64,000 nucleotides of DNA from Patescibacteria group bacterium. Its GTDB lineage: Bacteria > Patescibacteriota > Patescibacteriia > 2-02-FULL-49-11. Both the position numbers and the translations under genes were made by a program. The stretch is from contig JBAZQN010000003.1 in assembly GCA_041645165.1 (NCBI GenBank), forward strand, positions 28,198 through 92,197. Reading direction: 5' to 3'. Every line of letters starts with the position of its first letter. The stretch's first letter is position 1. Positions 6,481 to 48,326 of this stretch are shown here, in pieces. The notes under the pieces are model-generated. The model saw nothing but the letters and a program-made list of their open reading frames with translations. It was not told the origin of the DNA and searched no databases.

Positions 6481-7401
6481 TTACGTCGCCACCGTTCTTC
6501 CTATCGCGCCCGCAATGGTATTTATTTCTCGCATCAGCTGGTTAAGCGCCTCAATGGATATCGCTTGCTCTGCGTCTGAAATGGATTTATCCGGATCTAT
6601 GTGGCACTCGATAAGCAGCCCGTCTGCCCCCGCGGCAATGGCCGCTCTACTCATCGCGGGCACCAAATCGCGCCTGCCAGTACCGTGTGAAGGGTCCACG
6701 ATGATGGGCAAGTGGGTTTCATTTTGCAAATAAGGCACCGCATTCAGGTCAAGCGTAAACCGCAGCTCAGTGACATGCGTGCGGATGCCGCGTTCGCAGA
6801 GCATCACATTTGCATTGCCTCCGGTGAGAATATATTCTGCGGCGAGCAAAAATTCCTTGTAGGTGGAATGCATGCCGCGCTTTAAGAGCACGGGATGTTT
6901 TGTGCGCCCGACCTCTCGCAAAAGTGTATAATTCTGCATGTTCCGCGCGCCGATTTGGAGTATGTCCGCATATTCCACAATAAGATCCACATCCCTGGGG
7001 TCCATCACTTCCGTGATGGAGCGCAATCCAGTAGAACGCGCCGCTTTCTGGAGAAGCTGGAGCCCTCTCTTCCCCAACCCTTGGAAATCATACGGGCCGG
7101 TGCGGGGCTTAAATGCCCCACCGCGCAGCACCGTGCCGCCCGCCTCTTTTACCGCTTTCGCAATCAGCGTAATCTGCTCTTCGTTTTCCACCGAACACGG
7201 CCCTGCCATTATCACCACCTGCGGCCCTCCCACCAGCAGCCCTTGCACGTCAATCACTGTCTTCTCATCTCCGGAAGTATGCGCAAGCCGGTATGGTTTG
7301 AGAGGAGACGACTCTGCAGGCAATATTCCGTTGTCACTCTTAGGTGATTCTAACACTGTTTTCACTCTCTTAATGACTTTTTCTTTCATGATAGTTGGCA
7401 T
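6481..7401 (-). CDS. 3-deoxy-7-phosphoheptulonate (DAHP) synthase, class I-beta / KDO8PS-like
   Basis: [14 protein letters not shown]...[17 protein letters not shown]...[20 protein letters not shown] typical of Bacillus/Thermotoga-type DAHP synthase; 306 aa. Confidence 0.85.
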
Positions 7402-7647
7402 ATGTGTGGCGTATAAAGGCGTAATAATGGCGTGAATTGGCTTCTATAAAACATTAAACTCCCCCGTGTTTGGGAGAGTCATACTATCGCGAGGCTTGAA
7501 CTATCTTTATTTATTCATATACGACAAATCTCCCAAACGGTTAGTCGGGCTAAAGAAAAACCAAAAATAATTGTTGGAGAATTGTGCGCTTTGCATAATT
7601 AAAAATTTATACTCTACCAAAACAGATAAAAGCTCCACTTTCTCTTT

Positions 7648-8031
7648 TTATTTAGCATTTTTATCCTTTTCTTCGGAGGACGTCTGCATACCAAGCCTAT
7701 CTCTTTCAAAATCAGAAACTGCTTTGAGCGCTTCATCTGCGCGCTGTTTAAGTTTATCGTACTCTTCATTGAGTGCTCCTGCTTCCTCCTGACCAGCCCC
7801 AACCAGCTTATTCAGTCTCTGCCGTAAGAGCGCCATGTACTCATAGTTATGCGACAAACCCTGCCTCTTTGTCCTCTCCCAAAATTCTGTCACTGGTGCA
7901 TCTTTCGATAGTCCTTCTTTTCTCACTTGATCCGTTTCTTCATGCATGGATTTATTTTCCTCTGCGACTTGCCTAGCATCATCATATACTTCTGCGACTT
8001 TCTCTGGATCCCAATTTTCTTTTTTCCACAT
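7648..8031 (-). CDS. hypothetical charged helical protein
   Basis: 127-aa ORF, highly charged (E/K/R rich), no recognisable motif. Confidence 0.45.
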   Translation of the reverse strand: MWKKENWDPEKVAEVYDDARQVAEENKSMHEETDQVRKEGLSKDAPVTEFWERTKRQGLSHNYEYMALLRQRLNKLVGAGQEEAGALNEEYDKLKQRADEALKAVSDFERDRLGMQTSSEEKDKNAK

Positions 8032-8046
8032 AGGTGCAAAATTTAT

Positions 8047-8169
8047 TCACGACCGCTGATCTCCGGACGCGTCTTTCTTCTCCTTATAGAAGAGTGTCGG
8101 CCATGAAATCGCCACAAGCCCTGCCAGGATGATGGCGAGTATGATGATAATGTGTGCGTAGGGATTCAT
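8047..8169 (-). CDS. possible small single-TM peptide
   Basis: ATG..TGA ORF MNPYAHIIIILAIILAGLVAISWPTLFYKEKKDASGDQRS (40 aa), hydrophobic core; not in provided track (below size cut-off). Confidence 0.25.
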   Translation of the reverse strand: MNPYAHIIIILAIILAGLVAISWPTLFYKEKKDASGDQRS

Positions 8170-8224
8170 ACACTTTTATTAAACATCTTCACGAAACAAT
8201 ATTACCACACGCCTTATAACCATG

Positions 8225-8596
8225 TCAAATCGGGCGGACGGAAAGGTCGGGAATCCTTCGAAAATCGCGCACATTCCTCGTCACGAGACTCGTGCCAGTG
8301 AAGAGCGCAGTGGCAGCAATCGTGCTGTCCGCGAGTGAGAGGCGATAGGTGCGCCGGATAAATCCAGTGATGCGTGCAATGCGCGAGTCGAGCGAAATCA
8401 CCGCGAGCGTGCTCAATAACCTTTCGATCCGATTTTCTTCCTCGATACTCAAATCCGGAAATCCGAAAAGTTCCGCCTCGGTGAGCGCCGACACATACAC
8501 GGTGATCGGCTCGTTGAGCAGTCCGCTCAAGATTGCGGCCGCATGAGGGTCGTCCTTGAGGTAATAGATGATCGCGTTGGTGTCGAGCGTGTACAC
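8225..8596 (-). CDS. vapC: PIN-domain toxin (VapC-like)
   Basis: YTLDTNAIIYYLKDDP...SLADSTIAATALFTGTSLVTRNVRDF: PIN acidic residues (D..E..D..N/D) pattern; start likely GTG ~8596 just after upstream antitoxin stop (track ORF extends to 8638). Confidence 0.7.
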   Translation of the reverse strand: MYTLDTNAIIYYLKDDPHAAAILSGLLNEPITVYVSALTEAELFGFPDLSIEEENRIERLLSTLAVISLDSRIARITGFIRRTYRLSLADSTIAATALFTGTSLVTRNVRDFRRIPDLSVRPI

Positions 8597-32067: not shown

Positions 32068-32577
32068 TTATTGGCTGATCTCGGCTTTTAACTTCCTTAG
32101 ATCAACGAATTTCGCGAGGTTAAGGAGTTCTTTACCGACCCTTCCGCGCGTAGACATCACAATGACCCGCTTTCCCCTTTGTTTAAGCCGCTCCAGAGCG
32201 GGCGCAAAATCGCTGTCGCCGGAAACGAGAACGGCGGTATCGTATTTCTCCGCGAGCTCCACCATTTCAAAGGCGAGTTCAATGTCGAGACTGCCCTTAT
32301 GTTTATTGCCTTCGTTAGTTTTAATCTCTTTGAGCGCTTTGGTACGCAGAATATAACCGTTGATATCGAGCATGTCAAGGAATTTGCGTTCGGCGAGATT
32401 GTTTTCATCGACGGCGGCGTAAGCGAAACACTTCATGCCCTCGCCGCATTCGCGCTTAAGGTACCGCATCAACTTGGCATAAGCAACCTTCCAGCCAAGC
32501 GTGCGCTGCGAATAGAAGACATTAGAAACGTCGATGAAAACGTAGACTTTGCCGTGGACGAATGAGGAAATCATAAT
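32068..32577 (-). CDS. NYN-domain (LabA-like PIN) protein
   Basis: KVYVFIDVSNVFY…DIELAFEMVELAEKYDTAVLVSGDSDFAPALERLKQRGKRVIV: NYN acidic residues and layout. Confidence 0.7.
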   Translation of the reverse strand: MMISSFVHGKVYVFIDVSNVFYSQRTLGWKVAYAKLMRYLKRECGEGMKCFAYAAVDENNLAERKFLDMLDINGYILRTKALKEIKTNEGNKHKGSLDIELAFEMVELAEKYDTAVLVSGDSDFAPALERLKQRGKRVIVMSTRGRVGKELLNLAKFVDLRKLKAEISQ

Positions 32578-32774
32578 GGTAGCGTAGCAAAAAAGCGTGT
32601 TTTTCACAATATTACCCGTTCATACGGGTTAACAACGACGGCGACACGTTCCACTGCCGCCCGTCGCCAGTTCTGACCGTGACACTCCGGCGGTTTACCC
32701 CGCAGTGCGGGGTGAAGGAGTAATTGTCATGTGGTATACTACAAGTAGAATCAGTTTGTTTCTTTACTTAATTT

Positions 32775-33743
32775 ATGACCAAACTCATTCGGCTGAAAGT
32801 TTCCCGCATCAAATACACCGGCGATTCCATCGGCGATGACATCCGCATTGAAGTCGAGAGCCTGAACAAGTTCGTGGGGTTGAATATGCGGCTGAAGCGG
32901 GGAAGCGATAGAGCGCTGAATGTCGAAATAGGGCAATTCTTTGGCGACGGTGTGTCGTTCGCCCTGCCAGTAACAATCAGAATCATCGAACGAGATCTAG
33001 TATTCAACGACGTAGGAAGCGTGCAAAAAACGATCAAGGTCAATTTGAGCGACCCTTCGTCTCAACGTAACATCTATACGATAGAAGTGCGGGAACGGCG
33101 CGGTTATCTGACCCGGAAAAAGGCGGTCTTTGAAGTAACTTTGGAAGCAGGCGTGTCGGATACGATTTTGTACGTAGCAGACGAGAGCGGAGACGGCTGG
33201 GTGGTCACCGTGCCAGAACACGGTACCGAGAACATAAGCCTTCCATACCACTTAAAAATCTCGTTAGAAAAATACGATACTAAGCGCCAGTACTTTAAAA
33301 TCATGGAAGGGATCATACAGGGCACGAAGGCTTCAGTACAAATCGAATCAAACGGCACATCACACCTCCGTACTGAAAATCCGCATACCGGATCGGCGCA
33401 TCTCACATATTCGCTTTCTCGAGGAACGTTAAAGATGAACCGTAACGTCTACAAAGTCCTTAACTTCCCCCAAGACCCTGAACCATGGAAAAATGGTCTT
33501 TATGATATCGAAATACCTGACGCGCCGCATGAGCCCGGAGAAGCATATTTAGACCGTGCCAGATTGGCAAAAGTCTGGTTCCGCGTTGGTCACGGCGGAG
33601 AGAGGTACCTCCATACCGGCAGCGTGACACTTGGGTGCATCACGTTGACGGAAGTAGAACGCTGGGATTATATGTGTAAAGTACTCATGAAAGCGCGCAA
33701 AGGCGATGGGGAGAGCATCGGCGTGTTAGAGATAACCGACTGA
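32775..33743 (+). CDS. hypothetical protein with C-terminal YkuD/L,D-transpeptidase-like H…GC motif
   Basis: 322 aa, beta-rich; C-terminus VGHGGERYLHTGSVTLGCITL resembles LDT catalytic His…(S/T)xGC(I/V) signature. Confidence 0.5.
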   Translation: MTKLIRLKVSRIKYTGDSIGDDIRIEVESLNKFVGLNMRLKRGSDRALNVEIGQFFGDGVSFALPVTIRIIERDLVFNDVGSVQKTIKVNLSDPSSQRNIYTIEVRERRGYLTRKKAVFEVTLEAGVSDTILYVADESGDGWVVTVPEHGTENISLPYHLKISLEKYDTKRQYFKIMEGIIQGTKASVQIESNGTSHLRTENPHTGSAHLTYSLSRGTLKMNRNVYKVLNFPQDPEPWKNGLYDIEIPDAPHEPGEAYLDRARLAKVWFRVGHGGERYLHTGSVTLGCITLTEVERWDYMCKVLMKARKGDGESIGVLEITD

Positions 33744-33749
33744 GACTCT

Positions 33750-34727
33750 ATGCACCGAAAATATGCTCTCATCGCGTGTATAAGTCTCATACTCGTGACT
33801 GGCTTGGCCGCGCTGGTTCTCTACCGCTTCCGGGTTTCAGCCCCCTTGCGGAGCGTGCGTGAATTTGGCCCATTAACATTAGGAAGCAGTATGCCGTTAG
33901 CAGGACCGGGAGATTGGACGTTCGCACCGTACAAAAAGATACCTGAGTCAGATTTTTACGTACTCGTCGTCCAATATGATAATTGGTGCATCCAAGCTTC
34001 ATGCAGTCTTGATGGCGCTTTGGTACAAACTATGGGCGGATGGCTGCAAGGAGAAACAACGCGTAATTTCCCAGACTTACCGGAGATCATTGGTTTTGAC
34101 CGGGAAGAAAATAGGAAAGTGAAATCCATCGTCGTCATCGGCGACTCGAAGGGGAGGATTGCCGGCATCTATCCGAACAAGGGCATGGAAGACCTTATCC
34201 CCGTCTTGAAACTCCATCCTGATATTGCCGACTTCAGCCTCTTAAACGGCGTGGACGCATTCGGTCCGCTCAAAGTCGGAGAACCTTCACCGGTACAGCC
34301 CGGCAATCCGACCGGCTACCAGGCGGGAGCGCCAACGTCGTTTCCTTACATCCAAATACCAGCAGGAAAAAAATTTTATGTATTCTCATTTCAACAAGAA
34401 CTAACGGGAACAGGCTATTGCGCGTTCTGGAATTGCATCACGAGCAACTATGGCTACCGTAACTATACCGCGAACTATGTTGAAGATTTGGGCGGGTGGT
34501 GGTCAAGCGACGGATTACCTGAAACGGCACGGAAATTCGGCCTTGACCCTAACCGCGTGGCAAAAGGAGAAGCCTCGCTCGTGGTCGTGACCGACCCCTC
34601 CGGCGCCATCGTCGCCATTCATCCCAACAAAACCATACGGGACATCCTCTCCATCCTGCGGCAACTTCCCGAACTCGCTGACGTGGAACGGTTATTCGGG
34701 GACCGCGCCGACGACGCTCCCATTTGA
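33750..34727 (+). CDS. membrane-anchored protein with two tandem thioredoxin/redoxin-like domains
   Basis: N-terminal TM helix; internal duplication; each half has hydrophobic strand + WC..C-like motif (YVLVVQYDNWCIQASC / YVFSFQQ…YCAFWNC) and peroxiredoxin-like C-terminal strand (KSIVVIGDSKGRIAGIYPN / ASLVVVTDPSGAIVAIHPN). Confidence 0.45.
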   Translation: MHRKYALIACISLILVTGLAALVLYRFRVSAPLRSVREFGPLTLGSSMPLAGPGDWTFAPYKKIPESDFYVLVVQYDNWCIQASCSLDGALVQTMGGWLQGETTRNFPDLPEIIGFDREENRKVKSIVVIGDSKGRIAGIYPNKGMEDLIPVLKLHPDIADFSLLNGVDAFGPLKVGEPSPVQPGNPTGYQAGAPTSFPYIQIPAGKKFYVFSFQQELTGTGYCAFWNCITSNYGYRNYTANYVEDLGGWWSSDGLPETARKFGLDPNRVAKGEASLVVVTDPSGAIVAIHPNKTIRDILSILRQLPELADVERLFGDRADDAPI

Positions 34728-34732
34728 AAATG

Positions 34733-35032
34733 CTATGCCTTGATCCTCGTTAAAAACGACGGCGAGACGTTCCATTGGCGCCCATCGCCAGTCTTGATTG
34801 TTACGCTCCGGCGGTTGAGTTTCATGACGATGCCGACGATCTGCTTCCCCTCATGTGTAAAGTACACTCTGTCCATGAGATTGAATTTCGCAAGACCCTT
34901 CAAGTCACGGGCTTTGTGATAGAGCTTTAATCGTTCAACGACCATTCGGTTAAGCAGCCTCAAATCTTCTTCACTCAAACGATTGAGGAAATGCTCGAAT
35001 TCGGTGACAGGTTGGAGATGTTGATCCGGCAT
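34733..35032 (-). CDS. hypothetical small protein
   Basis: 99-aa ORF 3 bp downstream of pRiA4b-like gene; C-terminal beta-rich segment (VYFTHEGKQIVGIVMKLNRRSVTIKTGDGRQWNV). Confidence 0.4.
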   Translation of the reverse strand: MPDQHLQPVTEFEHFLNRLSEEDLRLLNRMVVERLKLYHKARDLKGLAKFNLMDRVYFTHEGKQIVGIVMKLNRRSVTIKTGDGRQWNVSPSFLTRIKA

Positions 35033-35035
35033 ACA

Positions 35036-35638
35036 TTAATCAAGCGCAGGATATTGTTCGGGCGCGACGCCGCGCTGGTCTATCACGCGCGGAAAATCGC
35101 GTGCTGTTTCTTGTTTATCAACGTGACGCGTTCCTTTCAACTTAACATCAAACCTGTGGCCGTCGCCAAAGTCAAACATGAATTCCAGCCTTGGGTGCCG
35201 GGAGTAATCGAGGTCGCAGATGCGGATTTCGTCTGTCTTGAACGTCGGATGCGGATCGTCTTCCCAACCCGGCGCAAAAAACGCAATGGATGAACCGGTG
35301 AACAATGGATCTGGTCTTTTACGCGTGTCGAGAAATTCAAAACCGTGCATGTGATCGTTATCCCAGCACATCGACTCAATTATCGTCTCGGCAAGATCGC
35401 AAAAAGTCTGCGTACCCAAAATTGCGATATCCCGCCATACAGGCCTTTTCAGGAGATACGTTGCACGGAACGCATACACCGCATCTTTGGGATTCTTGTC
35501 CGTAAAATTTTTCTCAAACTCCAGCTTATACTCCTTGTACTTCTTCAGCACTTCCTGTAAATACTCAACATGCCGCTCTTCTGTTATGGCACGATTGATA
35601 CTCTCGTGAAAATTACCTTCTTGGATTTTTGGGTGCAT
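35036..35638 (-). CDS. plasmid pRiA4b ORF-3-like family protein
   Basis: MCWDNDHMHGFEF and FMFDFGDGHRFDV blocks match the W.D.HLH.F / DFGD motifs of PF07929 as I recall them. Confidence 0.5.
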   Translation of the reverse strand: MHPKIQEGNFHESINRAITEERHVEYLQEVLKKYKEYKLEFEKNFTDKNPKDAVYAFRATYLLKRPVWRDIAILGTQTFCDLAETIIESMCWDNDHMHGFEFLDTRKRPDPLFTGSSIAFFAPGWEDDPHPTFKTDEIRICDLDYSRHPRLEFMFDFGDGHRFDVKLKGTRHVDKQETARDFPRVIDQRGVAPEQYPALD

Positions 35639-35758
35639 ATATAAGGCAGCTAAGCCATAGCGATACGCATACGGTCCATGGCGGCATTCCCACAACGCCC
35701 CCCTCGCTTTCAACGCCGACGGAATTTGTGCCAGCAGAAAGCTCTCGCGCCGCTTTAT

Positions 35759-38443
35759 TTATTTTTTAATCCAAGTCCGAACAACTTCTTGAAAATTGCG
35801 AGGTTTCTGTTGTTGGGTTTCCCATTCTTCCTGTCTGACGTAAAGCATTTTGTAAACGACGTTCTTTTGATTCGCGTTTACATCCACGCACCATTGAGCA
35901 AGCCGTTTAATTTTCTCGACATCATCGAGATCCTCTCGCCCTTTGGTTTCAACGACATAGTATTCTTCAGGGCGTACTTTTACAATATAATCCGGGTAGT
36001 AATCTGAAATGCTTCCGTCCGCGTTTTTATAATCAATTTTGAAATGCACCGCAAAATAGTTTTTGGCGTAAGAAATTATATCCTCGCAATTTTCAAGAAA
36101 GCTCGCGAATTCCAACTCAAAATGGCTATCACCAATAATTTTATTAAAAATGCTTCGCTTTGGCACAATATACTCCTGATCTTTGACCACGAACGGGCGA
36201 CTTTTGCCGATTTTTATATAGTCCCGAATTTCCGTCTCGCCTTTATCCAAAACAGTGAGCGTGTTGATTTCTTTTTTGAATGTTTCAAAGATCGTCCGCG
36301 AAGCCTCAATTTCGGATAGATTGCGAAGCGAATTGAGGTTATCAAGATCAATACGCGTATTAAATAAATGTCCTTGGATAAACTCCTTAACCTTGCCGTA
36401 AAGTATGTCATAGCCGGAAACAAGCCGGAGTTCTTTCATAATAACCTGCGTAAAATATCCGATTACGCTTTGATAGTTAGGCACAAAATTGCTATCAAGC
36501 TCCGTTTTGTGGGTAATATCTCCGCTCGCTATATCACGAAAGACAATCTCTCGTTTTTCCTCCTCCGAAAACTCTTTGATAGGGATTTTTTTATGACCGA
36601 ATTTCGCGACATCAAGTCCGGACAAATTTTTATATTCGCGATAAATGCGGGGAGTAAGAACCGGAATTTGAATATCCATTTTCTCAATGTCCTTTTTCAT
36701 ATTCTCGCGATCAACTTCAACCACGAGCGGACTTTTTGGGCCGGTGCCTTCGCCCATCTTGCGGTGTTCAAATTCAACTCCCTCGTTTTTGATAGATTCC
36801 ACAAAATCCATAAATGCGTCAGTGCCTACAACACTGACAAGCTCCGGCAAGTCCGGATCGCGATACATTCGGCGCAAACCTCGTCCAAGCGTCTGCTCGG
36901 GCAGAATGTTGCTTTGCGCAACATAAGCCCGTAGGCCGACAATAGTCGTTACATTACGAACATCCCAGCCCTCTTTGAGCATAAGCACCGAAACAATCGC
37001 TTTGTACGGACTGTCGAGCTGATCAATCTCATTAGCCGCCTTACGCAGTATTTTTAGTTCTTCCTCTTTTTTGCCAGTTACACTTTCCGAAATTTCTCCG
37101 TTGTTTTTCGTGTGAATCACTAACACCGCGTCTTTTAGCTCCGCATAGGTGTTTTCAAGATATTCCGCCACCTCATCGCAATTTTTTGTATCATCTGTCA
37201 TCAAAAATAAGACTGCTTTTTTGCCGAGCTTAGTGTGCACGTCGTACACTTTTTTCCATTCAAGAAAACCGAGATGGATATAATCTTTATATTTCTCGGT
37301 ATACTTCGCGCTTTTGTGTTCCTGTAATTTTGCGCGGCTGGCTGAATCCGGCAAAACAGGGTGCTTAACGACATTTTGATGGATTGCTTCAACAAGCGGG
37401 TAGTCGCTTATCGTTTGCACAAAAATTGCGCCGCTGTTGTGCTTCGGCGTAGCCGTTACATCAACCTGCAAAGCAAGCTGACCACCTTTCATCTTGAGCC
37501 GATTGTGAATATCCTCAATTGCCTTGAACCACGCCAAGCGCGGATCGTGGATATGGTGGGCTTCATCGTTTAGCACAATAAGTTCGTCCACATTGCGAAC
37601 AATATCCCCAAGATCAAGTTTTGATTCGTTCGTCGCGCCAACCGGCTGCTTTCCAAGAAAATAATCGGTTGTATCGGGATCACCGAAGCTCGCCGACTCT
37701 ATCGCGCCCTCGTAGACACGGTGAATGTTCGTAAGAAAGATATTGCCGGTTTTTCGCACAGTGCCAATTTCATCCTGAATATGAAGCGTCATTTGAAAAT
37801 CATCGCGCCAGTTCCGTCCTTGATAGCCGTTGTCGGGAAGCACGGGATCCCCAAAAAATATTTTGAGTCCGTCAAAATCGGCGCGAATACGATCAAGAAC
37901 GATAATATTGGGCGTAATGACCAGAAAATTGCGGGCCAACCGCGAATCGTCCTCATAAAGTTTGTGATAGTAGCACCATGCCAAAATCAAACTCAATACT
38001 TTTGTTTTTCCACTACCAGTTGCCATCTTTACTACATATCGCGTCCATGTCTCGCTAAACATACTTGTTGAAATCGCCCGCGAGCTATCAAATTGCATAA
38101 GTGCGTATGGATCTCTCGCCTTGGCGATTTCATACAGCCAAATAATCGTTTCCACCGCCTCTCGTTGGGCAAAGTAGTATTGAAAAAGAAATATCTCGCC
38201 GTCTGATGTTTCTGTCGGATGATCAGTTAAAAACCACCACTTGAGCAATGTTTTGCTTGTTTCGCTAGCGCCGTCATAACCGGACAATCGCCAATCCCGA
38301 ACTTTTTTGCGAAGTTCGGCAACGAGTGGAGGGAGTAGTTTTTCATATCCCTTTTCACGCAAATTCTCATCAGCCGGAAACCACCGGATCGCCGGATCAA
38401 GAATTTCATATGGTGATTGTGGAAACTTTTGATGAAGTGCCAT
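35759..38443 (-). CDS. res: Type III restriction endonuclease Res subunit (SF2 helicase + PD-(D/E)xK nuclease)
   Basis: MATGSGKTKV Walker A, LNDEAHHI DEAH box, C-terminal DYYPDYIV…VVETKGRE nuclease motif; 894 aa. Confidence 0.85.
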   Translation of the reverse strand: MALHQKFPQSPYEILDPAIRWFPADENLREKGYEKLLPPLVAELRKKVRDWRLSGYDGASETSKTLLKWWFLTDHPTETSDGEIFLFQYYFAQREAVETIIWLYEIAKARDPYALMQFDSSRAISTSMFSETWTRYVVKMATGSGKTKVLSLILAWCYYHKLYEDDSRLARNFLVITPNIIVLDRIRADFDGLKIFFGDPVLPDNGYQGRNWRDDFQMTLHIQDEIGTVRKTGNIFLTNIHRVYEGAIESASFGDPDTTDYFLGKQPVGATNESKLDLGDIVRNVDELIVLNDEAHHIHDPRLAWFKAIEDIHNRLKMKGGQLALQVDVTATPKHNSGAIFVQTISDYPLVEAIHQNVVKHPVLPDSASRAKLQEHKSAKYTEKYKDYIHLGFLEWKKVYDVHTKLGKKAVLFLMTDDTKNCDEVAEYLENTYAELKDAVLVIHTKNNGEISESVTGKKEEELKILRKAANEIDQLDSPYKAIVSVLMLKEGWDVRNVTTIVGLRAYVAQSNILPEQTLGRGLRRMYRDPDLPELVSVVGTDAFMDFVESIKNEGVEFEHRKMGEGTGPKSPLVVEVDRENMKKDIEKMDIQIPVLTPRIYREYKNLSGLDVAKFGHKKIPIKEFSEEEKREIVFRDIASGDITHKTELDSNFVPNYQSVIGYFTQVIMKELRLVSGYDILYGKVKEFIQGHLFNTRIDLDNLNSLRNLSEIEASRTIFETFKKEINTLTVLDKGETEIRDYIKIGKSRPFVVKDQEYIVPKRSIFNKIIGDSHFELEFASFLENCEDIISYAKNYFAVHFKIDYKNADGSISDYYPDYIVKVRPEEYYVVETKGREDLDDVEKIKRLAQWCVDVNANQKNVVYKMLYVRQEEWETQQQKPRNFQEVVRTWIKK

Positions 38444-38627
38444 AAAACTATTTAAAGTTTCAACTAATTCCAGCCCTTATTTTAAGCCAAATTTTAATCA
38501 TTTTTTAACTAATTCGTCTCTCTTTTAACTAACTTCCAAACCGCAATTCCGATCTTTTCTTCTAATCCCTTAGCTAGGATAATGACCCGCCCAGAAACGG
38601 CCTTAAAATAGAGCCTAAATCGGCCTA

Positions 38628-40082
38628 TCATGTTTTATTATCAACCCCCCTTGAAAATAAACCCTTGGGCATCTCTTGCCCAGGCTTTCTATAGTAACGA
38701 TCCTTTTTTGCCTTACCAATTTTTTCTAGCAGTCCTTTTTCAACCCAGGCCTTCAAAATCCTAGACATTCTTAAGACATCGTGTACGCCGGTTGTTTCAC
38801 GGGCCTGTTTATTCGTAATGCGATAGTTTGCATCTAAATATTTACTGACGGTATCCCAATATTCAACTTTTTGCAGATTAAGAAGTATAAGCAACACCGA
38901 GTTCGGTTTTATTGTCGGCGGAAAGTATAACGGTTCGTATAGATTTTTCTCTTTCATCACTTTATACATACGATCAACGCCTTCTCCAATATCCAGGTTT
39001 GGAGCAACTTGAAAACGATTCAATGTTCTTAATATTAAAGGGTTTCTGGCGAATCTTTCTGACCGTATATTTTCAGTAGTGATGTGTCCCGGATAAGTCC
39101 CCGGACTTTCCACCTCAACACGATCGTCAAAGAATCTAACCTGTATATCGTTCTGGACAAAATAATTTCTATGAATAACTGCGTTCGTAATAGCTTCTTG
39201 AAATGCCCACTCGGGAATCATAAAAGTTGGTCTAAATGAGGCGCCGCTTAGTTTTGGTCGAGAACTTTTCGCCACACTCTTAAAATAGTCAACAGCTTTT
39301 TCTATCTGATGCAAGAGAGATCCTTCAAGAGTAAATGGCCGGTCTACAAAATTTGGCTCACCTGTATAATTTGGTTTGGTCCCATAATAGTGAGAAATTT
39401 TAATTCCGCATTTATTTTTCAACATAACCGATGGATTTTTACCGAACAATAAGACTCCGGCTGTGGTGAGCTCGTGCTTTCCAGCTTGATCAATCGAAAG
39501 TCCGTTATCTTTCAAAAACTGCCAGTCATTCAAGCTTTCACTTGCGGTATCCTTTTTATATTGCTTCAGTAAATTTTCATCCACGTCGTCGAGCGTAAAA
39601 ATGTCTGATTTCTCACTTTCAAATTTTATAGCGCCCTTCTCATACTTAAGACGCATTATTTCCGTAGAGCCGATTTTTACATTCTGCCTGCCTTTCCTTA
39701 CGAAAGTATCGCCGCGCTTGAGGGAATGCACATCATTGCTCTTTTTTACACTCACTACAAACAACTTGTCCGGCTGCCTATTCACATTGGTTATATCGAG
39801 TTCAAATTTTCCCCAAAGATTAAGCGGTGGTTCAATTTCTTTTTCAATGAGCTTCAAAAACTCTGAAATATTATCCAGGTTTTCACTGATTCCAAGTAGT
39901 CGTTTGTGGCCTTCTGCTTTTGACGGATCTTCAAGCCCAACGACAATGTAACCACCTTCCGTATTTGCAAAGGAAACAACCGTCTCTAAAAGTTTCGCCG
40001 GCTCAATAGCGGCTCGCTTACACTCAAAAGTCTGCCACTCCTGGGTATCTAGAAAAATCTTTATTATTTCTTGGTCATTCAT
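38628..40082 (-). CDS. AlbA_2 (Schlafen-like) DNA-binding + HATPase_c_4-type ATPase protein with C-terminal wHTH
   Basis: N-terminal divergent-AAA/AlbA_2 fold (…VSFANTEGGYIVVGLED…), central region often mis-annotated as RecG C-terminal domain, C-terminal HTH; start overlaps mod stop (ATGA). Confidence 0.65.
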   Translation of the reverse strand: MNDQEIIKIFLDTQEWQTFECKRAAIEPAKLLETVVSFANTEGGYIVVGLEDPSKAEGHKRLLGISENLDNISEFLKLIEKEIEPPLNLWGKFELDITNVNRQPDKLFVVSVKKSNDVHSLKRGDTFVRKGRQNVKIGSTEIMRLKYEKGAIKFESEKSDIFTLDDVDENLLKQYKKDTASESLNDWQFLKDNGLSIDQAGKHELTTAGVLLFGKNPSVMLKNKCGIKISHYYGTKPNYTGEPNFVDRPFTLEGSLLHQIEKAVDYFKSVAKSSRPKLSGASFRPTFMIPEWAFQEAITNAVIHRNYFVQNDIQVRFFDDRVEVESPGTYPGHITTENIRSERFARNPLILRTLNRFQVAPNLDIGEGVDRMYKVMKEKNLYEPLYFPPTIKPNSVLLILLNLQKVEYWDTVSKYLDANYRITNKQARETTGVHDVLRMSRILKAWVEKGLLEKIGKAKKDRYYRKPGQEMPKGLFSRGVDNKT

Positions 40083-42235
40083 ATATTCACCTCAATTATC
40101 TTCATCGTATCATTGCCGAAAATATCCACGACCTTGATTGCAAGCTTGTGCTTGCCCTTTCCAAGCTCGCGGGAAATAGATGTAAGTTCAAGCTCGCGCT
40201 TCTTCTTCGTACGGAAATCCTGCCACTCGTTTTCAAACACATAATCGCCAGTCCATACTTCTTCATATTCCAAGAGGTTCACCTGCGTTGGATTCGTTGA
40301 GCCGTCCAGTTTTATCTGCGTGGCTTCTTTTTTGGGTACGCGAACAACTTCTTTTTTGCTCTCAAAATTAAAATCAACCGCCCAATAATCAATCCAGTCC
40401 GTCCATTTTTTCGTGAGCGTCTCTCGCTCCACAATACCATCTTTGTCTTTGGATATTTTGATGATTTGGCCGTTTTCCACCACCAGCTTTTTACCCCCGG
40501 CTTTAAGATTTTCCTCAACTTCTTTGATTGAATCCTGATTATAAAATACTGAAAAATCAGTCAGCTCAACCGCTACCATTCCTTTTTTAACAATAGGTTT
40601 TACTTCAATATAGCTCACATCATGGAATACTACTTGATTCTTCTCAATCGCGCGCTTGTCAAACACATCGCGGGGAATGTATTTGAGCGCGAGATCAACG
40701 CCTTTGCCTTTGGCTTCTTCCTGAATGTTGGGAAATAATCCCATTTCAAACTCAAACGCCAAAACATCAACTTTGGTGATTTGCTTTTCAACTGCTTCTG
40801 TTATCACCGCGTCAACGAACAGCCGCGAGACCGGCATATTGATTGGCCCAATGGCAACGAGGCGAGAATTTTTCTTACCATGAAATGTTTTAAAGCCGTC
40901 AAAACTTTCGGCTTTGTATGCCGAAATAATAAGTGCAATAAAATCTTTTTCTTTTTGAGCGATTTGCTTTTGTTTCTCATCTTCGCGCAGGTTCGGATTG
41001 ATACCAACAAACATCTGGCGTTCGTATTTTCCGAGATTTAAAATTTCAAAGGCGCGAAAATCTTTTCCCGCTTTTGCCAGTTCACGCTGAACACCAATCA
41101 TTCGCTTGCGAGTTGTATGAATTGAGAATTTGCCTAAATCAGAACCAATCCACTTACGCCCGAGCTTTTCCGCAACAGCGAGCGTAGTACCCGAACCAGC
41201 AAAAAAATCCGCAACGAGATCGCCTTCGTTAGACGATGCTTTAACAATTCTCTCTAATAAATCTTCATGTTTTTGAGTAGGATAACCAACTTTTTTGTCC
41301 CCTCTTAACGCTGGCAATTCGATAAAATTATCGGCCTTGTTTTCCGTAACTTCAAAATAAACAATTTTGCCATTTTCGTCTCTTAGTCTTTGGGCTTTCC
41401 CCGTAACTGGATCCCAGACATGCTTGCTTGCGGTTCTAAATCCTTCTTCATTTTTAATTTTTTCGTAAACAATATTCCAGATATGCTCACCCTTGTTTTT
41501 TGCGTAATAAAATACCGTCTCGGTATTTTGATGAAATTTTTTCGACAAAGCTTTTAAACCTACTGCTGTGTAATGTATGACAATTTCATTTTGAAAATTA
41601 TTTTCATTGAATATCTCATCCAGTAATATTTTAATATACGGGCTTACTCTCCAATCGCAATGCACATAAATACTTCCATCTTCAGCAAGTAAACCGTGCA
41701 TAAGCGACAATCTCTCATATATCATCGCGATAAAACTATCCGCGCCCTTGCCCCATGTGTCACGATACGCTAATTCTTCCAGCACGCCGGGCTTTTTAGT
41801 AAATTCTTCTTCCCCGACTTCAATGTTCATTGAAAAATCCGCACCAACATCAAACGGCGGATCAATGTAAATCAATTTAATTCCACCTTGTTCTTGGATT
41901 TCTTGCCGAAGCGGACCATTTTTCAAACTGGAAAGGATTAATTTGTTGTCGCCCCAAATGAGCTTATTCGTCCATCCTTTGAGCTGGCGGCCGCGAGTGT
42001 CCACGTCAAACAGGGCCTGCTGGAGCTTGACCTCTTTTTCGCTTCTCGGCTCATCAACCTGCTCAATAACTTGAAATGGCAAAACGACATTCGTAACCTC
42101 ACTCGTTTTTCCATTCCAGACAAGCTCCACCTCCTGCTTATCCGCAAAAAGCAAAAAACGATATTTATCCGGCAACGGCTTATCGGCTTCCAAGTATTTG
42201 ATAATATCCCGTTTTTCGTTATCTGCTATTTTCAT
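40079..42235 (-). CDS. mod: Type III R-M DNA methyltransferase Mod subunit
   Basis: IYIDPPFDVGADF (DPPF motif IV) and DFFAGSGTTLAVAEKLGRKWIGSD (motif I FxGxG) in N6/N4-MTase beta-class order; 718 aa. Confidence 0.85.
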   Translation of the reverse strand: MKIADNEKRDIIKYLEADKPLPDKYRFLLFADKQEVELVWNGKTSEVTNVVLPFQVIEQVDEPRSEKEVKLQQALFDVDTRGRQLKGWTNKLIWGDNKLILSSLKNGPLRQEIQEQGGIKLIYIDPPFDVGADFSMNIEVGEEEFTKKPGVLEELAYRDTWGKGADSFIAMIYERLSLMHGLLAEDGSIYVHCDWRVSPYIKILLDEIFNENNFQNEIVIHYTAVGLKALSKKFHQNTETVFYYAKNKGEHIWNIVYEKIKNEEGFRTASKHVWDPVTGKAQRLRDENGKIVYFEVTENKADNFIELPALRGDKKVGYPTQKHEDLLERIVKASSNEGDLVADFFAGSGTTLAVAEKLGRKWIGSDLGKFSIHTTRKRMIGVQRELAKAGKDFRAFEILNLGKYERQMFVGINPNLREDEKQKQIAQKEKDFIALIISAYKAESFDGFKTFHGKKNSRLVAIGPINMPVSRLFVDAVITEAVEKQITKVDVLAFEFEMGLFPNIQEEAKGKGVDLALKYIPRDVFDKRAIEKNQVVFHDVSYIEVKPIVKKGMVAVELTDFSVFYNQDSIKEVEENLKAGGKKLVVENGQIIKISKDKDGIVERETLTKKWTDWIDYWAVDFNFESKKEVVRVPKKEATQIKLDGSTNPTQVNLLEYEEVWTGDYVFENEWQDFRTKKKRELELTSISRELGKGKHKLAIKVVDIFGNDTMKIIEVNI

Positions 42236-42255: not shown

Positions 42256-42588
42256 CTACAGGTTTTTTGGAGAAGGTGGCGAATTGTTTTCATTATAGCA
42301 ACTCTCGCACTCCCAATACTCAAAACACCCATACGGTTTTGGGTCCTGGTTGAGAACTCGGAGAGTAAAATTACCGATGCGTTCCGTTTTGTGCCCCGCT
42401 TTCTTGGCTCTCTGAAATTCTGCTTTTGAAATTTTCGGTACCTTGCCGAAGTAATGCCCGCCGAGGTAGGAGCGGTTAGCACTAAGCCTGATAGAAACAG
42501 CACATCCGCAAATGCTGCACTGACGTGCGAGCACCCGAGCCGTCACCCGATCTTTGAGATTTTTAGTGAGAGTTAATGGCCTTGCCAT
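42256..42588 (-). CDS. small zinc-ribbon protein
   Basis: CSICGC … CESC cysteine pairs; ~110 aa from MARPLTL; 20 bp upstream of mod. Confidence 0.4.
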   Translation of the reverse strand: MARPLTLTKNLKDRVTARVLARQCSICGCAVSIRLSANRSYLGGHYFGKVPKISKAEFQRAKKAGHKTERIGNFTLRVLNQDPKPYGCFEYWECESCYNENNSPPSPKNL

Positions 42589-42663
42589 ACCTCCATGATC
42601 CCACAAAAAACGGCTTGGGGCAAGGAAAAACGTGGCAAACATACTGCAAATTTGCCACATCGC

Positions 42664-43200
42664 CTAGACGCCGCCTGACAATTTATACTTGGCATGGCGT
42701 TGATCGCCCAGCCGCGCCACAAGACCGCGGTTGATGAGTTCTTTGAGCCGGTTAGTCGCGGTAGTGTCGGTGACGTGGAACGCATCCCGAATATCCTGAT
42801 TGGTGACCAGCGTGCCCTTCTGTTTGATGAAATCCACGATCTCCTGAAGACGCGCTTCATACTGCGCGCGCTTCCTGGTGTGTGCAAGCGTGAGATTGGC
42901 GTCCAGCTTGTCCTGAAATATACGGTCTTTGTCCGCATCCGTGAGCGGCTTCTCTACCTCTTTTATAACTTCTTTCACCACAGGCTCTGCGACAGGCGAC
43001 GTATCGTGTGTCTCCTGAATAGGTGGCTCGCTTTCTAGCGAAGGCGCGTCCGGTGCAGGCGGTTCAAATATAGACGATGGTTCTACCTCCGGCGCGGGCT
43101 CTATAACAGTCACCGGTTCAGCGACTGGAGCAGGTTCGGCAACTGGCGCAGGCGAAACCGGCGCGCTTTCCGGCATGGTCTCTTCTGAAGGCGCATCCAC
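42664..43200 (-). CDS. Pro/Ala/Glu-rich protein with C-terminal winged-helix DNA-binding domain
   Basis: N-terminal PAPVAEPAPVAEP low complexity; C-terminal TLVTNQDIRDAFHVTDTTATNRLKELINRGLVARLG HTH. Confidence 0.5.
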   Translation of the reverse strand: MDAPSEETMPESAPVSPAPVAEPAPVAEPVTVIEPAPEVEPSSIFEPPAPDAPSLESEPPIQETHDTSPVAEPVVKEVIKEVEKPLTDADKDRIFQDKLDANLTLAHTRKRAQYEARLQEIVDFIKQKGTLVTNQDIRDAFHVTDTTATNRLKELINRGLVARLGDQRHAKYKLSGGV

Positions 43201-44993: not shown

Positions 44994-47900
44994 TTATTGT
45001 ACCAACCGCCCCCTTATCTCGTCAATGATCTTAATAAGCCGCGTCGCATCCTCGGGGCTAATAAGAAACGTGGGAAAGTGTGTAAGTTGAGTCGTCATTG
45101 TTTTGAGAATTTGGCTCGCCACCTTGGGAAACCCTTTCTTGACGACCTTTTCCGCAGCTTCTATCTGTGCGATCAGCGCTTTTTTGAGACCCTTTTGGAT
45201 ATCAAGAGTCTGAACTATCTTTTTCAATATTACCAACGACACCCCCGCGTTGTCGGCTGTATCAGGAGTCACCGTTATATCATTCGTTCCGTTCCCATCA
45301 ATGTCCATATTCAAATTAATGGGCGTTAGTCCAGTATCTGTTGTTTGTACCGTGAGTGTCGCTATGGTGTGTTCGGCAACCGGGATATTTCTGATGGCCG
45401 TAGAGGCGACAAGTGTATCACCGCGCGCTTCGTCAATTTCGAGCGTAAAGGTGCCAAGATCCGTGCCTTTCAGGACGACGCGAATCGGTTCGCTTCCGTC
45501 CGCCCCAGCGTATTTCACTTCACCGGACTCCATGTAGTAGCTGTTCGGTATCGTCTTTTCATAGAGCCGGATATCTGAATCGGGATCAGAATTTTCTATC
45601 AAGCCCGTATGGCTGCCCAACGCATCGTAGAGATGAATGTCAACTGGCGAATGCAGGGTGAAATCTATGGTTGTGTCTGAGGATCCCTGTGTCGGCTCTG
45701 TTACGGTGATGTGTTTAGTGTTCTCTCCTTCTTCAGGGTGTTCTTTCCCCTGGATGATATTGACAATGAACTCCTGCAGATCATCTATTTCGAAGATGCT
45801 GCCGTGATCTCGATTTTTTCTAAGTCGAAGATTCTCTTTATTATGTTTTCTTATATTCACATAATACCGATCCACTCCCTCCATCATGAGCGCGCTGGGC
45901 AGCACGACCGTTCCATCGCCTTGTATAGTCATCGGTTTGACTGTTTTATCGAGCGAACTGAGAGAAGCGCAGAAGAGACCGCATGAATACGTGATATGCG
46001 AAATCGTCTTAACACCCCATCCGGCAACTTGCACTACCTGCATGTGCGGGGGCGGCGACCATATATCGAGCGTGTCGTTATGCGTGGCTATAGCCCGCGA
46101 GAGAAGGTGCGGTTTGAGCACGTTGGGGTATTCGGCATCTTCCTTGTCAGGTTCTTGTCGCGTTCCTTCATCGCCTAAGAGGAATTTGTAAAGTTCTTCA
46201 GAAGAGGAAATATGTGCACCCGCGCGATTCACAAGCGCACCAAGTTTGCTGACACTTTCATCGAAGTTGATGACTGGCGTATGCACGATGTCGAAATACT
46301 TTTCTGACGGCAGAAGATCATACGCGCTTATCATGTTTTCCGCGGCCTCGCGCGCACGTTCTTCGTCCATGAGGAAACCGATATCATCAAAAGGCAGCTG
46401 CGCAGACTCGGCGTGCAGAAGCGCCTCAATCGCTTTCGGCGTGCCTAGCTGTGGCGGAGCAACCATGACGAGACGGTCAATATGATTGTAAAGATCGTGG
46501 TAAGGGTGATTTTCGTTTGCAATCTGAGTCAGAAGCGTTTTAGCGATCAAGCCGCCCATGCTATGCGTAATAATGGTGACATTGCCGCTTTTCGAAGATA
46601 CAATAAGTTTTTTTATCTCTTCGAGGAGATAGGGCGTTTCAGTGACTCCACTGTTGTAATTGACATTTTCTCCGTCCACGATACCGCTTCGTATGAGGTG
46701 TTCGAAATCAAGGCGCCAATCGTAGGGAAGGGCTTTCCACTCGTTGATGATTCCGTCATCGTCATCTGCTAATTCATCCATGAACTTTTTAAATTTTTCA
46801 TAGAAATTTGCCTGCAATACTCCGGTCGGGTCTGGAATAATATTGGCTTCGTCAATGATGTCGCGGGTATAAATACTTTTATCCAGACTTTCTCCTGTGG
46901 TAGAAGATGTATATAATTTTTCCACGTCAAAATTTCGATTTGGTTCCCACAGTTGATTTTCGAAAATTTCTTTTTTGTAGAGTCTGCTACCTTGAATACC
47001 AGGAAGAAACGCCACATTCGAGTAGCCTGTTTCGAATGTGAGTTCTCCGGTTGCGGGTAATCGCGATGACTCCTCGCCGTCGCTGGTTTCAAAATGGTAT
47101 TGGTAATGCCCTTTGGGGAAGGTATCGGTGCGGACGTATTGTTCTCCGTTGGTGTAATTGCCATCGCGCAGCGAGATAGGTATGGTTTCGGCAGTGTCAG
47201 GCTGCAGGAAGCTAAGGATGGCTCCGGTGCCGTCGTCTCTGGAGATTGCCACATACGGCGGCGGATCATTGTCGGCGTCGGTGTAAATTATCTTAAATAC
47301 GAGCGGGGTAACATCCGCCGTGCCCTTGTCCGGATTGATACCGTCGGTTCCATAACCGCTCTCGGCAGAGAATGAAAGGATGGGCGCGTGATTCGAGGGG
47401 AGCGCGGGGGTGAGGGTAAAGGTGAAGGGGCCATCCACCCATGGTTGGCCAAGATACCGCCAGTGTTCACCGTCCGTGGCTTGGAAATAGTATTCGTAGT
47501 TAGCGGCGTACGGAAATCCCGCTGGTACGGTTACGGTAAATTGCTCGCCGTCCGTATAATCTCCATTGTGGAGGAGAGGGAAAACGGGATCGGGAGCGGT
47601 GTCGCGGTGCAGGCGCAGTTCAGTAAAGAAAAATGGGTAACTTTCGGTGGTGCTGACGAATAGTTTGATCGCTTCTTCCGTTTCATCGTCGTCATGCGCG
47701 AGCGCGGCAGGGATGAAATCGTGGCGCGTCAGTACGGGCGCTGCGATGACCGGAGGATGGTTGTCCGGATGGGTGTAAACCATGGAAAAGGTGAGCGGGG
47801 TATTGGCAGGCGCGGTGTCAAGATTAATTGCGTCCGTACCGTCAAACCCTTCGGCGGGAGAGAAGGCGAGCGTGGGAGGGTGCGCAGGAAAAAACGCCCT

Positions 47901-47999
47901 TGCCGGATCGACCGGATTGGGAAGAATGGAAGCAATCGCCCAGGCCGTAACAGTGCCTATGAGAAGTAAGGAAATGCGTTTGAGAATTGAGAAGTGCAT
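44994..47999 (-). CDS. secreted multidomain protein with LCAT/PGAP1-like alpha/beta-hydrolase (lipase) domain
   Basis: N-terminal signal peptide; two repeated beta-domains (…NGDYTDGEQF… / …DGNYTNGEQY…); ALPYDWRLDFEHL and VTIITHSMGGLIAKTLL (GxSxG nucleophile) typical of LCAT-like lipases; 1001 aa. Confidence 0.6.
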   Translation of the reverse strand: MHFSILKRISLLLIGTVTAWAIASILPNPVDPARAFFPAHPPTLAFSPAEGFDGTDAINLDTAPANTPLTFSMVYTHPDNHPPVIAAPVLTRHDFIPAALAHDDDETEEAIKLFVSTTESYPFFFTELRLHRDTAPDPVFPLLHNGDYTDGEQFTVTVPAGFPYAANYEYYFQATDGEHWRYLGQPWVDGPFTFTLTPALPSNHAPILSFSAESGYGTDGINPDKGTADVTPLVFKIIYTDADNDPPPYVAISRDDGTGAILSFLQPDTAETIPISLRDGNYTNGEQYVRTDTFPKGHYQYHFETSDGEESSRLPATGELTFETGYSNVAFLPGIQGSRLYKKEIFENQLWEPNRNFDVEKLYTSSTTGESLDKSIYTRDIIDEANIIPDPTGVLQANFYEKFKKFMDELADDDDGIINEWKALPYDWRLDFEHLIRSGIVDGENVNYNSGVTETPYLLEEIKKLIVSSKSGNVTIITHSMGGLIAKTLLTQIANENHPYHDLYNHIDRLVMVAPPQLGTPKAIEALLHAESAQLPFDDIGFLMDEERAREAAENMISAYDLLPSEKYFDIVHTPVINFDESVSKLGALVNRAGAHISSSEELYKFLLGDEGTRQEPDKEDAEYPNVLKPHLLSRAIATHNDTLDIWSPPPHMQVVQVAGWGVKTISHITYSCGLFCASLSSLDKTVKPMTIQGDGTVVLPSALMMEGVDRYYVNIRKHNKENLRLRKNRDHGSIFEIDDLQEFIVNIIQGKEHPEEGENTKHITVTEPTQGSSDTTIDFTLHSPVDIHLYDALGSHTGLIENSDPDSDIRLYEKTIPNSYYMESGEVKYAGADGSEPIRVVLKGTDLGTFTLEIDEARGDTLVASTAIRNIPVAEHTIATLTVQTTDTGLTPINLNMDIDGNGTNDITVTPDTADNAGVSLVILKKIVQTLDIQKGLKKALIAQIEAAEKVVKKGFPKVASQILKTMTTQLTHFPTFLISPEDATRLIKIIDEIRGRLVQ

Positions 48000-48207: not shown

Positions 48208-48258
48208 CAAGGGCGAGATTCGAATCCCAAACCAATCCGCCGCAATTTCTCTGGCTCC
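48205..48258. repeat. right copy of 54-bp direct repeat (putative attR), overlapping last 7 nt of tRNA-Asn
   Basis: ctccaagggcgagattcgaatcccaaaccaatccgccgcaatttctctggctcc. Confidence 0.6.
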
Positions 48259-48326
48259 GAGACCGGGATTCGAACCCGGAACCAACTGCTTAACAGGCAG
48301 CTGCTCTACCATTGAGCTATCTCGGA
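48252..48326 (-). tRNA. tRNA-Asn (anticodon GTT), CCA encoded
   Basis: Minus-strand TCCGAGA-TA-GCTC-AATGGTA-GAGC-A-GCTGC-CTGTTAA-GCAGT-TGGTT-CCGGG-TTCGAAT-CCCGG-TCTCGGA-G-CCA folds as cloverleaf with 7-bp acceptor, GTT anticodon. Confidence 0.85.

Follow-up and report, generated by a model that had tools for sequence, protein, structure and literature searches.

The window analysed here, a stretch of 64,000 nucleotides from contig JBAZQN010000003.1 of a Patescibacteria group bacterium, carries an operon for restriction and modification (R-M) of Type III on its minus strand, in which the gene of a Schlafen-like protein of 484 amino acids (aa) is located between the methyltransferase gene mod and the restriction gene res. 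Canonically, mod lies directly upstream of res within one operon. Order and strand of both genes are retained in the window, and the 1455-bp Schlafen gene together with a 184-bp spacer comes between them. The features of the operon are as follows.

35759-38443, minus strand: res, a long open reading frame (ORF) for a Type III restriction subunit of 894 aa
38444-38627, minus strand: spacer of 184 bp between the Schlafen gene and res
38628-40082, minus strand: Schlafen gene, 1455 bp for 484 aa (SLFN nuclease, linker domain, GHKL ATPase and winged helix)
38688-38876, minus strand: C-terminal winged helix-turn-helix of the Schlafen protein, aa 403-465 (AlphaFold2 model and Foldseek)
38913-39215, minus strand: GHKL (HATPase_c_4) ATPase core, approximately aa 290-390 (Pfam and N-box)
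39675-40040, minus strand: SLFN/AlbA_2 nuclease domain, aa 15-136 (Pfam and motifs)
40079-40082, minus strand: ATGA overlap of the mod stop and the Schlafen gene start, read from the sequence
40079-42235, minus strand: mod, a Type III beta-class DNA methyltransferase of 718 aa
41297-41647, minus strand: variable target-recognition region of mod (approximately aa 197-313), between motif IV and motif I

Judged by their motifs, the two flanking genes encode a Type III R-M enzyme. Mod matches N6_N4_Mtase in Pfam (4e-40) and MTase_III in PADLOC (1.6e-117), and it shows the beta-class order, with motif IV (DPPF at aa 125) ahead of the target-recognition region and motif I (FAGSG at aa 345) behind it. 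The target-recognition region is the sole part of the operon without a DNA alignment to the closest relative, locus L002 (gap from 41295 to 41644 of the window). No simple-sequence repeats are present in mod, so there is no sign of phase variation. Res matches ResIII in Pfam (1e-13) and REase_III in PADLOC, while RE_endonuc (3e-4, 21 bits) stays just under its cut-off of 23.4. It carries the motifs of a superfamily 2 helicase (GSGKT at 143, DEAH at 293 and QTLGRGLR at 517) and the C-terminal PD-(D/E)xK nuclease motif expected of a Type III Res (PD at 817, followed by ETK). Type III enzymes are characterised by a Mod2Res complex, whose ATP-dependent cleavage requires two unmethylated sites in inverse orientation.

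The ATG of the Schlafen gene shares bases with the TGA of mod, the junction reading GTGAATATATGAATGACC (= AATATATGAATG), and this overlap points to translational coupling of the Schlafen gene to mod. Start/stop coupling exists with mod only, res being set apart by the spacer. Since the ratios of nonsynonymous to synonymous substitution (dN/dS) against L002 are low (0.083 for mod, 0.072 for the Schlafen gene and 0.059 for res), all three are functional genes, which are intact and under purifying selection.

The protein encoded between mod and res

The middle protein exhibits all features of its class that can be checked on a sequence or a model, and is a Schlafen nuclease joined to a GHKL ATPase and a helix-turn-helix (HTH), an architecture that has been named "Schlatpase"-HTH or, among prokaryotic Schlafens (pSlfns), HisKinase-HTH. 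Pfam detects SLFN_AlbA_2 (PF04326) with 66.7 bits (cut-off 25.3) and, at aa 312-386, HATPase_c_4 (PF13749) with 56.4 bits (cut-off 26). The nuclease motif Ex4ExK is present as E15WQTFE20CK22, the SFAN box lies at aa 37-40, and the N-box of the GHKL ATPase reads E296AITN300, with the catalytic glutamate and the Mg-binding asparagine. Across 78 aligned homologs there is no variation at E15, K22, N40, D52, E296 and N300, while conservation of E20 is at least 90%.

The profile of the protein family matches the structure 3lmm (DIP2311) of the Protein Data Bank as well as rat SLFN13, SLFN14 and SLFN12, and the GHKL region aligns to residues 271-383 of 3lmm. Foldseek likewise places 3lmm first, over the full length of the AlphaFold2 model, followed by SLFN14, SLFN5, SLFN13 and SLFN11; further matches are the AlbA_2 domain of SAMD9 and the CA domains of histidine kinases. 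The C-terminal winged helix has no match in the Pfam scan of the middle protein and is visible only in the model and by Foldseek. It consists of three helices (403-419, 424-431 and 436-448) and two strands (453-455 and 463-465), modelled with a per-residue confidence (pLDDT) of 73-85, and Foldseek finds weak matches of aa 403-465 to winged-helix, MarR and Fur domains. A distant homolog, in locus L121, gives HTH_24, MarR_2 and DIP2311-like_C matches for the whole protein, no single stretch of which passes alone.

An initial annotation of the window, made from the letters alone, had described a Type III operon with a Schlafen-like AlbA_2/HATPase_c_4/winged-helix gene coupled to mod and positioned ahead of res, and Pfam, PADLOC, the AlphaFold2 model and the ATGA overlap agree with it. 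It had taken the AlbA_2 domain for a DNA-binding domain; the domain is there, and the nuclease domain of Schlafens is the better reading of it. Its remark that the family is often labelled 'RecG' is borne out by the source names of database relatives. An older label of this class is COG2865.

Homologs of the Schlafen gene and the mod-res junction

A database search with the Schlafen protein yielded 1361 relatives at E ≤ 1e-5, the best 120 of which show 70-83% identity and stem for the most part from metagenomes of Patescibacteria. In GTDB genomes, 30 loci with close homologs (59-84% identical) were detected, 29 of which were usable for annotation of the neighbouring genes. Taking as linked any R-M gene not more than two genes away, the Schlafen homolog adjoins R-M genes in 15 of these 29 loci, and the systems concerned are unrelated to each other (Type I, II, IIG and III). 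The recurrent linkage that the initial annotation had proposed to look for does therefore exist, and it is not particular to Type III systems. The contexts of the 15 loci, followed by those of some further loci that were looked up, are listed below.

Type III, mod-SLFN-res: L002 and L017
Type III, mod-SLFN-res with very distant partners: L016
SLFN-res at a contig edge: L024, L010 and L029
Type I: L011 (hsdM-SLFN-hsdS-rhuM-hsdR) and L020 (hsdM-SLFN)
IIG-like N6 methyltransferases: L001, L025, L027 and L028
EcoRI methylase and GmrSD: L003
Dcm/Vsr: L004
R.Pab1 endonuclease: L019
Further locus L031/L032: HTH_17-SLFN-DUF7695-Dcm-Vsr, adjoining a serine recombinase
Further locus L043: HTH_3-mod-SLFN-res, with a 4-nt start/stop overlap with mod
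Further locus L045: stand-alone Schlafen gene after dnaK-dnaJ
Further locus L047: stand-alone Schlafen gene in a HEPN/Fic/AbiEii island

The order mod-Schlafen-res is not due to chance, since it recurs in L002/L036-39, L017, L016 and L043. The identities to the window proteins are rather uneven among these loci. In L002, Mod is 81% and Res 93.5% identical, and in L017 the values are 58.5% and 69-70%. The Schlafen protein is 71% identical both in L043, where Mod and Res reach 36% and 35%, and in L016, where they reach 27% and 23%. At the DNA level the similarity to the window ends exactly at the gene borders in all GTDB loci except L002, L017 and L024. In a neighbour-joining tree (without bootstrap) the Type III-embedded Schlafen copies are scattered among Type I, Type II and stand-alone copies and are not congruent with genetic context. 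The R-M linkage of this clade is thus polyphyletic, and since the tree scatters the contexts and the identities of Mod, Res and Schlafen protein are so uneven, the Schlafen gene is a conserved plug-in that repeatedly landed beside methyltransferase genes of unrelated R-M systems. Distant plasmid relatives are R-M-embedded as well, for instance in the Type I operon of the IncC plasmid pNDM102337. No relatives were found in IMG/VR with the patterns used, which leaves phage carriage without an example there.

Two of the loci show peculiarities of their own. In L019 the Schlafen homolog is split into ORFs of 187 and 302 aa by an apparent frameshift (6848-8323), beside the R.Pab1-type endonuclease gene, and may be a decaying copy. 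L017 contains an extra ORF of 148 aa without a Pfam match (7536-7982) between mod and the Schlafen gene, overlapping the mod stop.

A metagenome scan with Res as query gave 80 loci (L050-L129) with Res proteins 65-91% identical to that of the window, and both mod and res are visible in 68 of them. Just over half (36/68) show the canonical arrangement with a gap of 3-18 bp, mostly 8 bp, while in the remaining 32 there are 215-2729 bp between mod and res. With the exception of L128, whose 215-bp gap contains only an ORF of 49 codons, the gap is taken up in all of the widely spaced loci (31/32) by between one and three ORFs on the same strand. This cargo falls into about 26 sequence clusters of at least 49 aa (30 if four short antisense ORFs are added) and forms approximately 20 configurations across the cargo-bearing loci. 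It includes three different Schlafen types. The cargo types are the following.

SLFN-GHKL(-winged helix) proteins, 21-34% identical to the window Schlafen: L069, L070, L081 and L121
SLFN-only proteins of 328 aa: L054, L079 and L114
NYN RNase, with a 70-aa partner in L056 and L087 and without it in L126
HEPN protein with a 131-aa partner
OLD-type ATPase-TOPRIM protein
AAA_21/AAA_15 ABC ATPases
Fic together with a winged helix-turn-helix
KilA-N protein
ClpP-like protease
DUF3800 protein
PDC-S05-like and PDC-M36A-like proteins
About nine families without Pfam or PADLOC match: L066/L067 (296 aa), L093/L094 (206 aa), L055 (176 aa), L104 (229 aa), L099 (225 and 121 aa), L102 (271 aa), L085 (156 aa) and L096 (132 aa)

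The unmatched families share the slot with known toxin and defence families and are candidates for new effectors. Since the start of most cargo genes either overlaps the mod stop by 4 nt or lies 3 nt after it, the overlap with mod is the rule for this slot; it is mostly ATGA, with GTGA or TTGA in L069/L070, L120 and L129. Many cargo genes end 1-15 bp ahead of res. Even loci with 95-98% identity between their Res proteins differ in their cargo or have none, and this indicates that cargo turnover is much faster than the divergence of the backbone. The window-type Schlafen occurs in none of the 80 loci. Taken together, the comparison of these sequences shows that the mod-res junction of this Type III lineage serves as a slot in which accessory genes are exchanged rapidly.

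Extent of the cassette and its surroundings

The initial annotation had proposed a five-gene hybrid of restriction and abortive infection, which included two further genes upstream of mod.

42256-43200, minus strand: two upstream same-strand ORFs, local neighbours outside the conserved module
42256-42660, minus strand: upstream ORF of 134 aa with two CxxC pairs, no Pfam match
42664-43200, minus strand: upstream ORF of 178 aa, Pro-rich, MarR/winged-helix matches all below the cut-offs

Both ORFs exist, with the CxxC pairs and the Pro-rich composition that had been noticed. The former has no family match to back the name of a Zn-ribbon protein, and the winged helix ascribed to the latter stays below the cut-offs. 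Among the 80 related Type III loci, none contains a match to either protein. Their genes are also missing from L002/L036-39, where a divergent ftsK on the other strand occupies the upstream side, and they were found only in L034, a contig of the same organism. The closest relative has a three-gene cassette between ftsK and rpoC, and the chromosomal sites of the cassette differ between the window and L036. Since the upstream genes are missing in relatives and the sites differ, the conserved unit consists of three genes and is mobile. A five-gene module is rejected, whereas the hybrid reading as such fits the comparative data.

The 184-bp spacer is approximately 93% identical to that of L002, more than the coding DNA on either side, and it is not conserved in L017, L024 and L016. 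It probably carries the res promoter or a 5' leader. There is a promoter-like site at 38508-38479, in a scan that as a whole is at chance level, as are the promoter and terminator scans in general. RNA structure in the spacer is not significant (z = -0.89), and no remnant of the mod 3' end was found in it as a scar of insertion. An ORF of 40 codons called in the spacer is probably not coding, since 7 nonsynonymous changes stand against 1 synonymous change in comparison with its L002 counterpart (counted manually on the alignment). An element of about 85 nt with a TTTACC...GGTAAA inverted repeat lies just upstream of res in L002 (5500-5587) and L024 (1030-1112) and is absent from the window.

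The stretch with the R-M cassette has a G+C content of about 41%, compared with about 51% in the genome, and is situated downstream of rpoD and a tRNA-Asn gene. The tRNA-Asn (GTT) gene (48252-48326, minus strand), the sole RNA family match of an Rfam scan of the whole window, lies between rpoD (approximately 49.1-50.5 kb) and the lower-GC stretch (approximately 35-47 kb). No direct repeats derived from tRNA-Asn that would mark the borders of an island were found. In L015 and L031/L032, too, rpoD is not more than 10 kb away from the Schlafen homolog. Upstream of the cassette on the same strand is a gene whose product of 1001 aa contains a domain of the LCAT/alpha-beta-hydrolase kind (DUF900, PGAP1-like) (44994-47999, minus strand), followed on this strand by three small ORFs without family matches. 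Directly downstream of res there is a PRiA4_ORF3-like gene (35036-35713, minus strand) and, 3 kb beyond, a gene for an NYN-domain RNase (32068-32607, minus strand), a type of RNase that is also found as mod-res cargo in related loci. A direct repeat of 94 nt (77% identity, 32602-32695 and 34723-34816) flanks two plus-strand ORFs without Pfam match (32775-33743 and 33750-34727).

Possible function and relation to known systems

Studies of 2026 showed that prokaryotic Schlafens act against phages as effectors that cleave tRNA (PMC13056530; PMC13462974). The statement of the initial annotation, that no function had been described for the family inside a Type III system, is therefore outdated by these two papers and by bioRxiv 10.64898/2026.05.29.728809. 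The HisKinase-HTH class accounts for 19.2% of pSlfns (PMC13056530), 58.6% of SLFN proteins possess a GHKL domain, and over 90% of the Schlatpase C-terminal tails contain an HTH (bioRxiv 10.64898/2026.05.29.728809). Schlafen-ATPase-HTH proteins form the largest class of prokaryotic Schlafens, with tens of thousands of sequences. The active-site motif Ex4(E/D)xK and the SAFAN-type 'Schlafen box' have been described for mammalian and prokaryotic Schlafens alike. A mechanistic precedent is RzAgo, a Schlafen-linked prokaryotic Argonaute (SLFN-pAgo), whose residues 1-442 make up the Schlatpase supradomain. ATP is bound and hydrolysed by its GHKL domain, which also drives tetramerisation, and in this way Schlafen domains are paired to a tRNA-cleaving unit, while the fused sensor detects invader DNA (bioRxiv 10.64898/2026.05.29.728809). 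PMC13462974 reports that more than half of the defence-linked Schlafens lie near R-M systems or other nucleases, and that the Schlafen-ATPase-DNA-binding proteins of cluster 7 are 'tightly associated' with R-M, which is a bioinformatic association. According to a proposal of 2012-13, toxin-like genes embedded in R-M operons of Type I and Type III form a second line of defence that works by suicide or dormancy. 'Repeated toxin displacement' was noted as well, and the example worked out for such an embedded toxin is PrrC-EcoprrI.

The window contains an intact Type III operon whose fast-changing mod-res slot is occupied by a Schlatpase with a winged helix, and by analogy with these systems we consider it probable that this protein serves as an ATP-regulated RNase in a second layer of defence. 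As in RzAgo, Cash and pSlfn, the Schlafen protein would act as an ATP-regulated RNase, with metal-dependent cleavage of tRNA/RNA and antiphage activity, and being co-produced with Mod it would add translation arrest, a second and abortive layer, to the Type III system. The trigger may be DNA to which the winged helix binds, DNA ends arising from restriction (as speculated in PMC13462974), or inhibition of the R-M enzyme or failure of restriction. The comparison of loci shows that the Schlafen gene is interchangeable in the same slot with other genes of toxin or abortive-infection type. A more far-reaching version, which we put forward tentatively and would not rely on, is that in a widespread Type III lineage, known mostly from Patescibacteria and groundwater metagenomes, the mod-res junction is a dedicated, translationally coupled and hypervariable effector slot, in which Mod or Mod2Res acts as the common sentinel or latency partner of interchangeable toxins (Schlafen, NYN, HEPN, OLD, Fic and ABC ATPases). 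If this is true, the PrrC principle would extend to Type III systems and the approximately nine unmatched cargo families would be new R-M-coupled abortive-infection effectors.

Several observations speak against a second layer of defence tied to the Type III enzyme. Members of the same clade (at least 70% identical) stand alone beside housekeeping genes such as dnaJ, rpsB, hisS and GATase genes or in other, non-R-M defence islands (L045, L006, L013, L023 and L047), and since the clade pairs with unrelated R-M enzymes, a specific contact of the protein with Mod or Res is less likely. The 184-bp spacer and the synonymous divergence (dS) from L002, which is smaller for res (0.60) than for mod (1.56) and the Schlafen gene (1.60), show that the locus is a recombinational mosaic, with its breakpoint close to this spacer, and not a co-evolved unit. 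Two HisKinase-type pSlfns gave no phage protection when tested alone in E. coli (PMC13056530). Schlatpase-HTH proteins embedded in R-M systems are known from their genes alone, this copy included, and the scores of the AlphaFold2 model are only moderate (pLDDT 70.2, predicted template modelling score 0.56).

Stand-alone copies, unrelated R-M partners and mosaic history are also what one would expect of the main rival explanation, according to which the Schlafen gene is an autonomous hitch-hiker, either a self-sufficient defence gene or a selfish toxin-like one, that neither senses nor needs the Type III enzyme and merely finds a recombination-friendly, well-expressed safe harbour at the junction. 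The abrupt end of inter-locus DNA similarity at the gene borders and the acceptance of about 20 unrelated cargo configurations by the slot fit this explanation as well, and the authors of the SLFN-pAgo study likewise saw no conserved partner. However, about half of the loci have a methyltransferase gene adjacent, often in the same operon and start/stop-coupled, which we judge to be far above chance, the lack of defence by HisKinase-type pSlfns alone does not suggest self-sufficiency, and PrrC is an established precedent showing that embedded RNases can depend on their R-M host. We therefore regard the hitch-hiker as doubtful, though it deserves serious attention.

It is unlikely, and strongly so in our opinion, that the protein is a transcription factor that controls res or the operon through its winged helix. 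The winged helix is indeed present in the model, the gene lies just upstream of a spacer that is well conserved with L002, some sources label relatives 'transcriptional regulator', and the older label COG2865 reads as a transcription factor, but the catalytic residues of both nuclease and ATPase are invariant across the clade, 36 of the 68 sister systems manage without any gene at the junction, no conserved operator-like sequence exists outside the gene, and the slot is otherwise occupied by toxins and not by regulators. L043 even possesses a small HTH_3 gene of its own (72 aa) upstream of mod besides the Schlafen gene. An R-M controller (C) protein in the strict sense is ruled out, since C proteins are HTH_3 proteins of approximately 70-100 aa encoded usually upstream, and here we find a multidomain protein of 484 aa with intact catalytic motifs between mod and res. 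Hardly any more convincing is the idea of addiction, in which a cargo toxin makes the loss of the R-M cassette costly by post-segregational killing and so serves the mobile module and not the host. The low G+C content of the module and its differing chromosomal sites in the window and L036 would suit such a role, as would the overlap of the cargo with the toxins of toxin-antitoxin systems (HEPN, Fic and AbiEii-like ATPases); yet the Schlafen gene has no evident antitoxin partner, addiction is already a property of R-M systems by themselves, and cargo is freely lost and gained between near-identical Res backbones.

The locus family bears on the question of how Schlafen-ATPase-HTH proteins are triggered, given that the copies tested alone did not protect. 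It represents a natural experiment, since the same Type III backbone (Res 95-98% identical) occurs either empty or filled, be it by a Schlafen gene or by one of about 20 other cargo configurations. Moreover, the same Schlafen clade is found with Type I, II or III partners or alone, so that dependence on the R-M host, as in PrrC, can be distinguished from the mere sharing of a favourable site of insertion. Being compact, the slot also lends itself to the search for new defence effectors.

That Schlafen-ATPase-DNA-binding proteins are associated with R-M systems has already been published, and the concept of R-M-embedded toxins is older than that. A hypervariable, start/stop-coupled cargo slot between mod and res within one Type III lineage seems not to have been spelled out before; our literature search for genes inserted between mod and res, whose scope did not extend to the supplementary tables of the 2026 Schlafen papers, brought up nothing specific. 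The window protein has the three-part architecture, the Ex4(E/D)xK motif, the SAFAN-type box and the PF13749 GHKL domain in common with the HisKinase-HTH class of pSlfns, and differs in being located inside a Type III operon with its start coupled to the mod stop. It resembles cluster 7 of PMC13462974 as a Schlafen-ATPase-DNA-binding protein beside R-M genes, but the accessible text of that paper states neither the R-M type nor the position of the gene. DIP2311 of Corynebacterium diphtheriae (3lmm) is the best full-length match in structure and sequence (Foldseek 1e-19, profile 4e-14), yet it is a structural-genomics entry without known function and only about 20% identical. With RzAgo the protein shares the N-terminal Schlatpase supradomain, whereas the Argonaute core is missing and the sensor is replaced by a winged helix. 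An SLFN-pAgo proper is ruled out, since the protein ends at 484 aa and the PADLOC pAgo model PDLC02394 is matched (E 4.4e-30) only over positions 56-424 of 1121.

Among R-M-embedded genes, the Type I operon of pNDM102337 (hsdR - TrlF-like ATPase - Schlafen-like gene - hsdS - AAA ATPase - hsdM) offers a Schlafen-like gene with overlapping starts and stops, although with 23% identity, in a Type I system and in another position relative to the methyltransferase gene. A functional parallel is PrrC of the EcoprrI Type Ic locus, where the gene of an NTPase-regulated tRNA nuclease likewise lies between R-M genes and provides a second line when restriction is blocked. PrrC combines an ABC ATPase with HEPN in a Type I host, whereas the middle protein consists of GHKL and Schlafen domains and has no ABC or HEPN match, so that homology to PrrC or RloC is ruled out and the analogy is a functional one. 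In addition, PrrC binds its R-M enzyme, while the Schlafen clade of the window pairs with unrelated R-M types.

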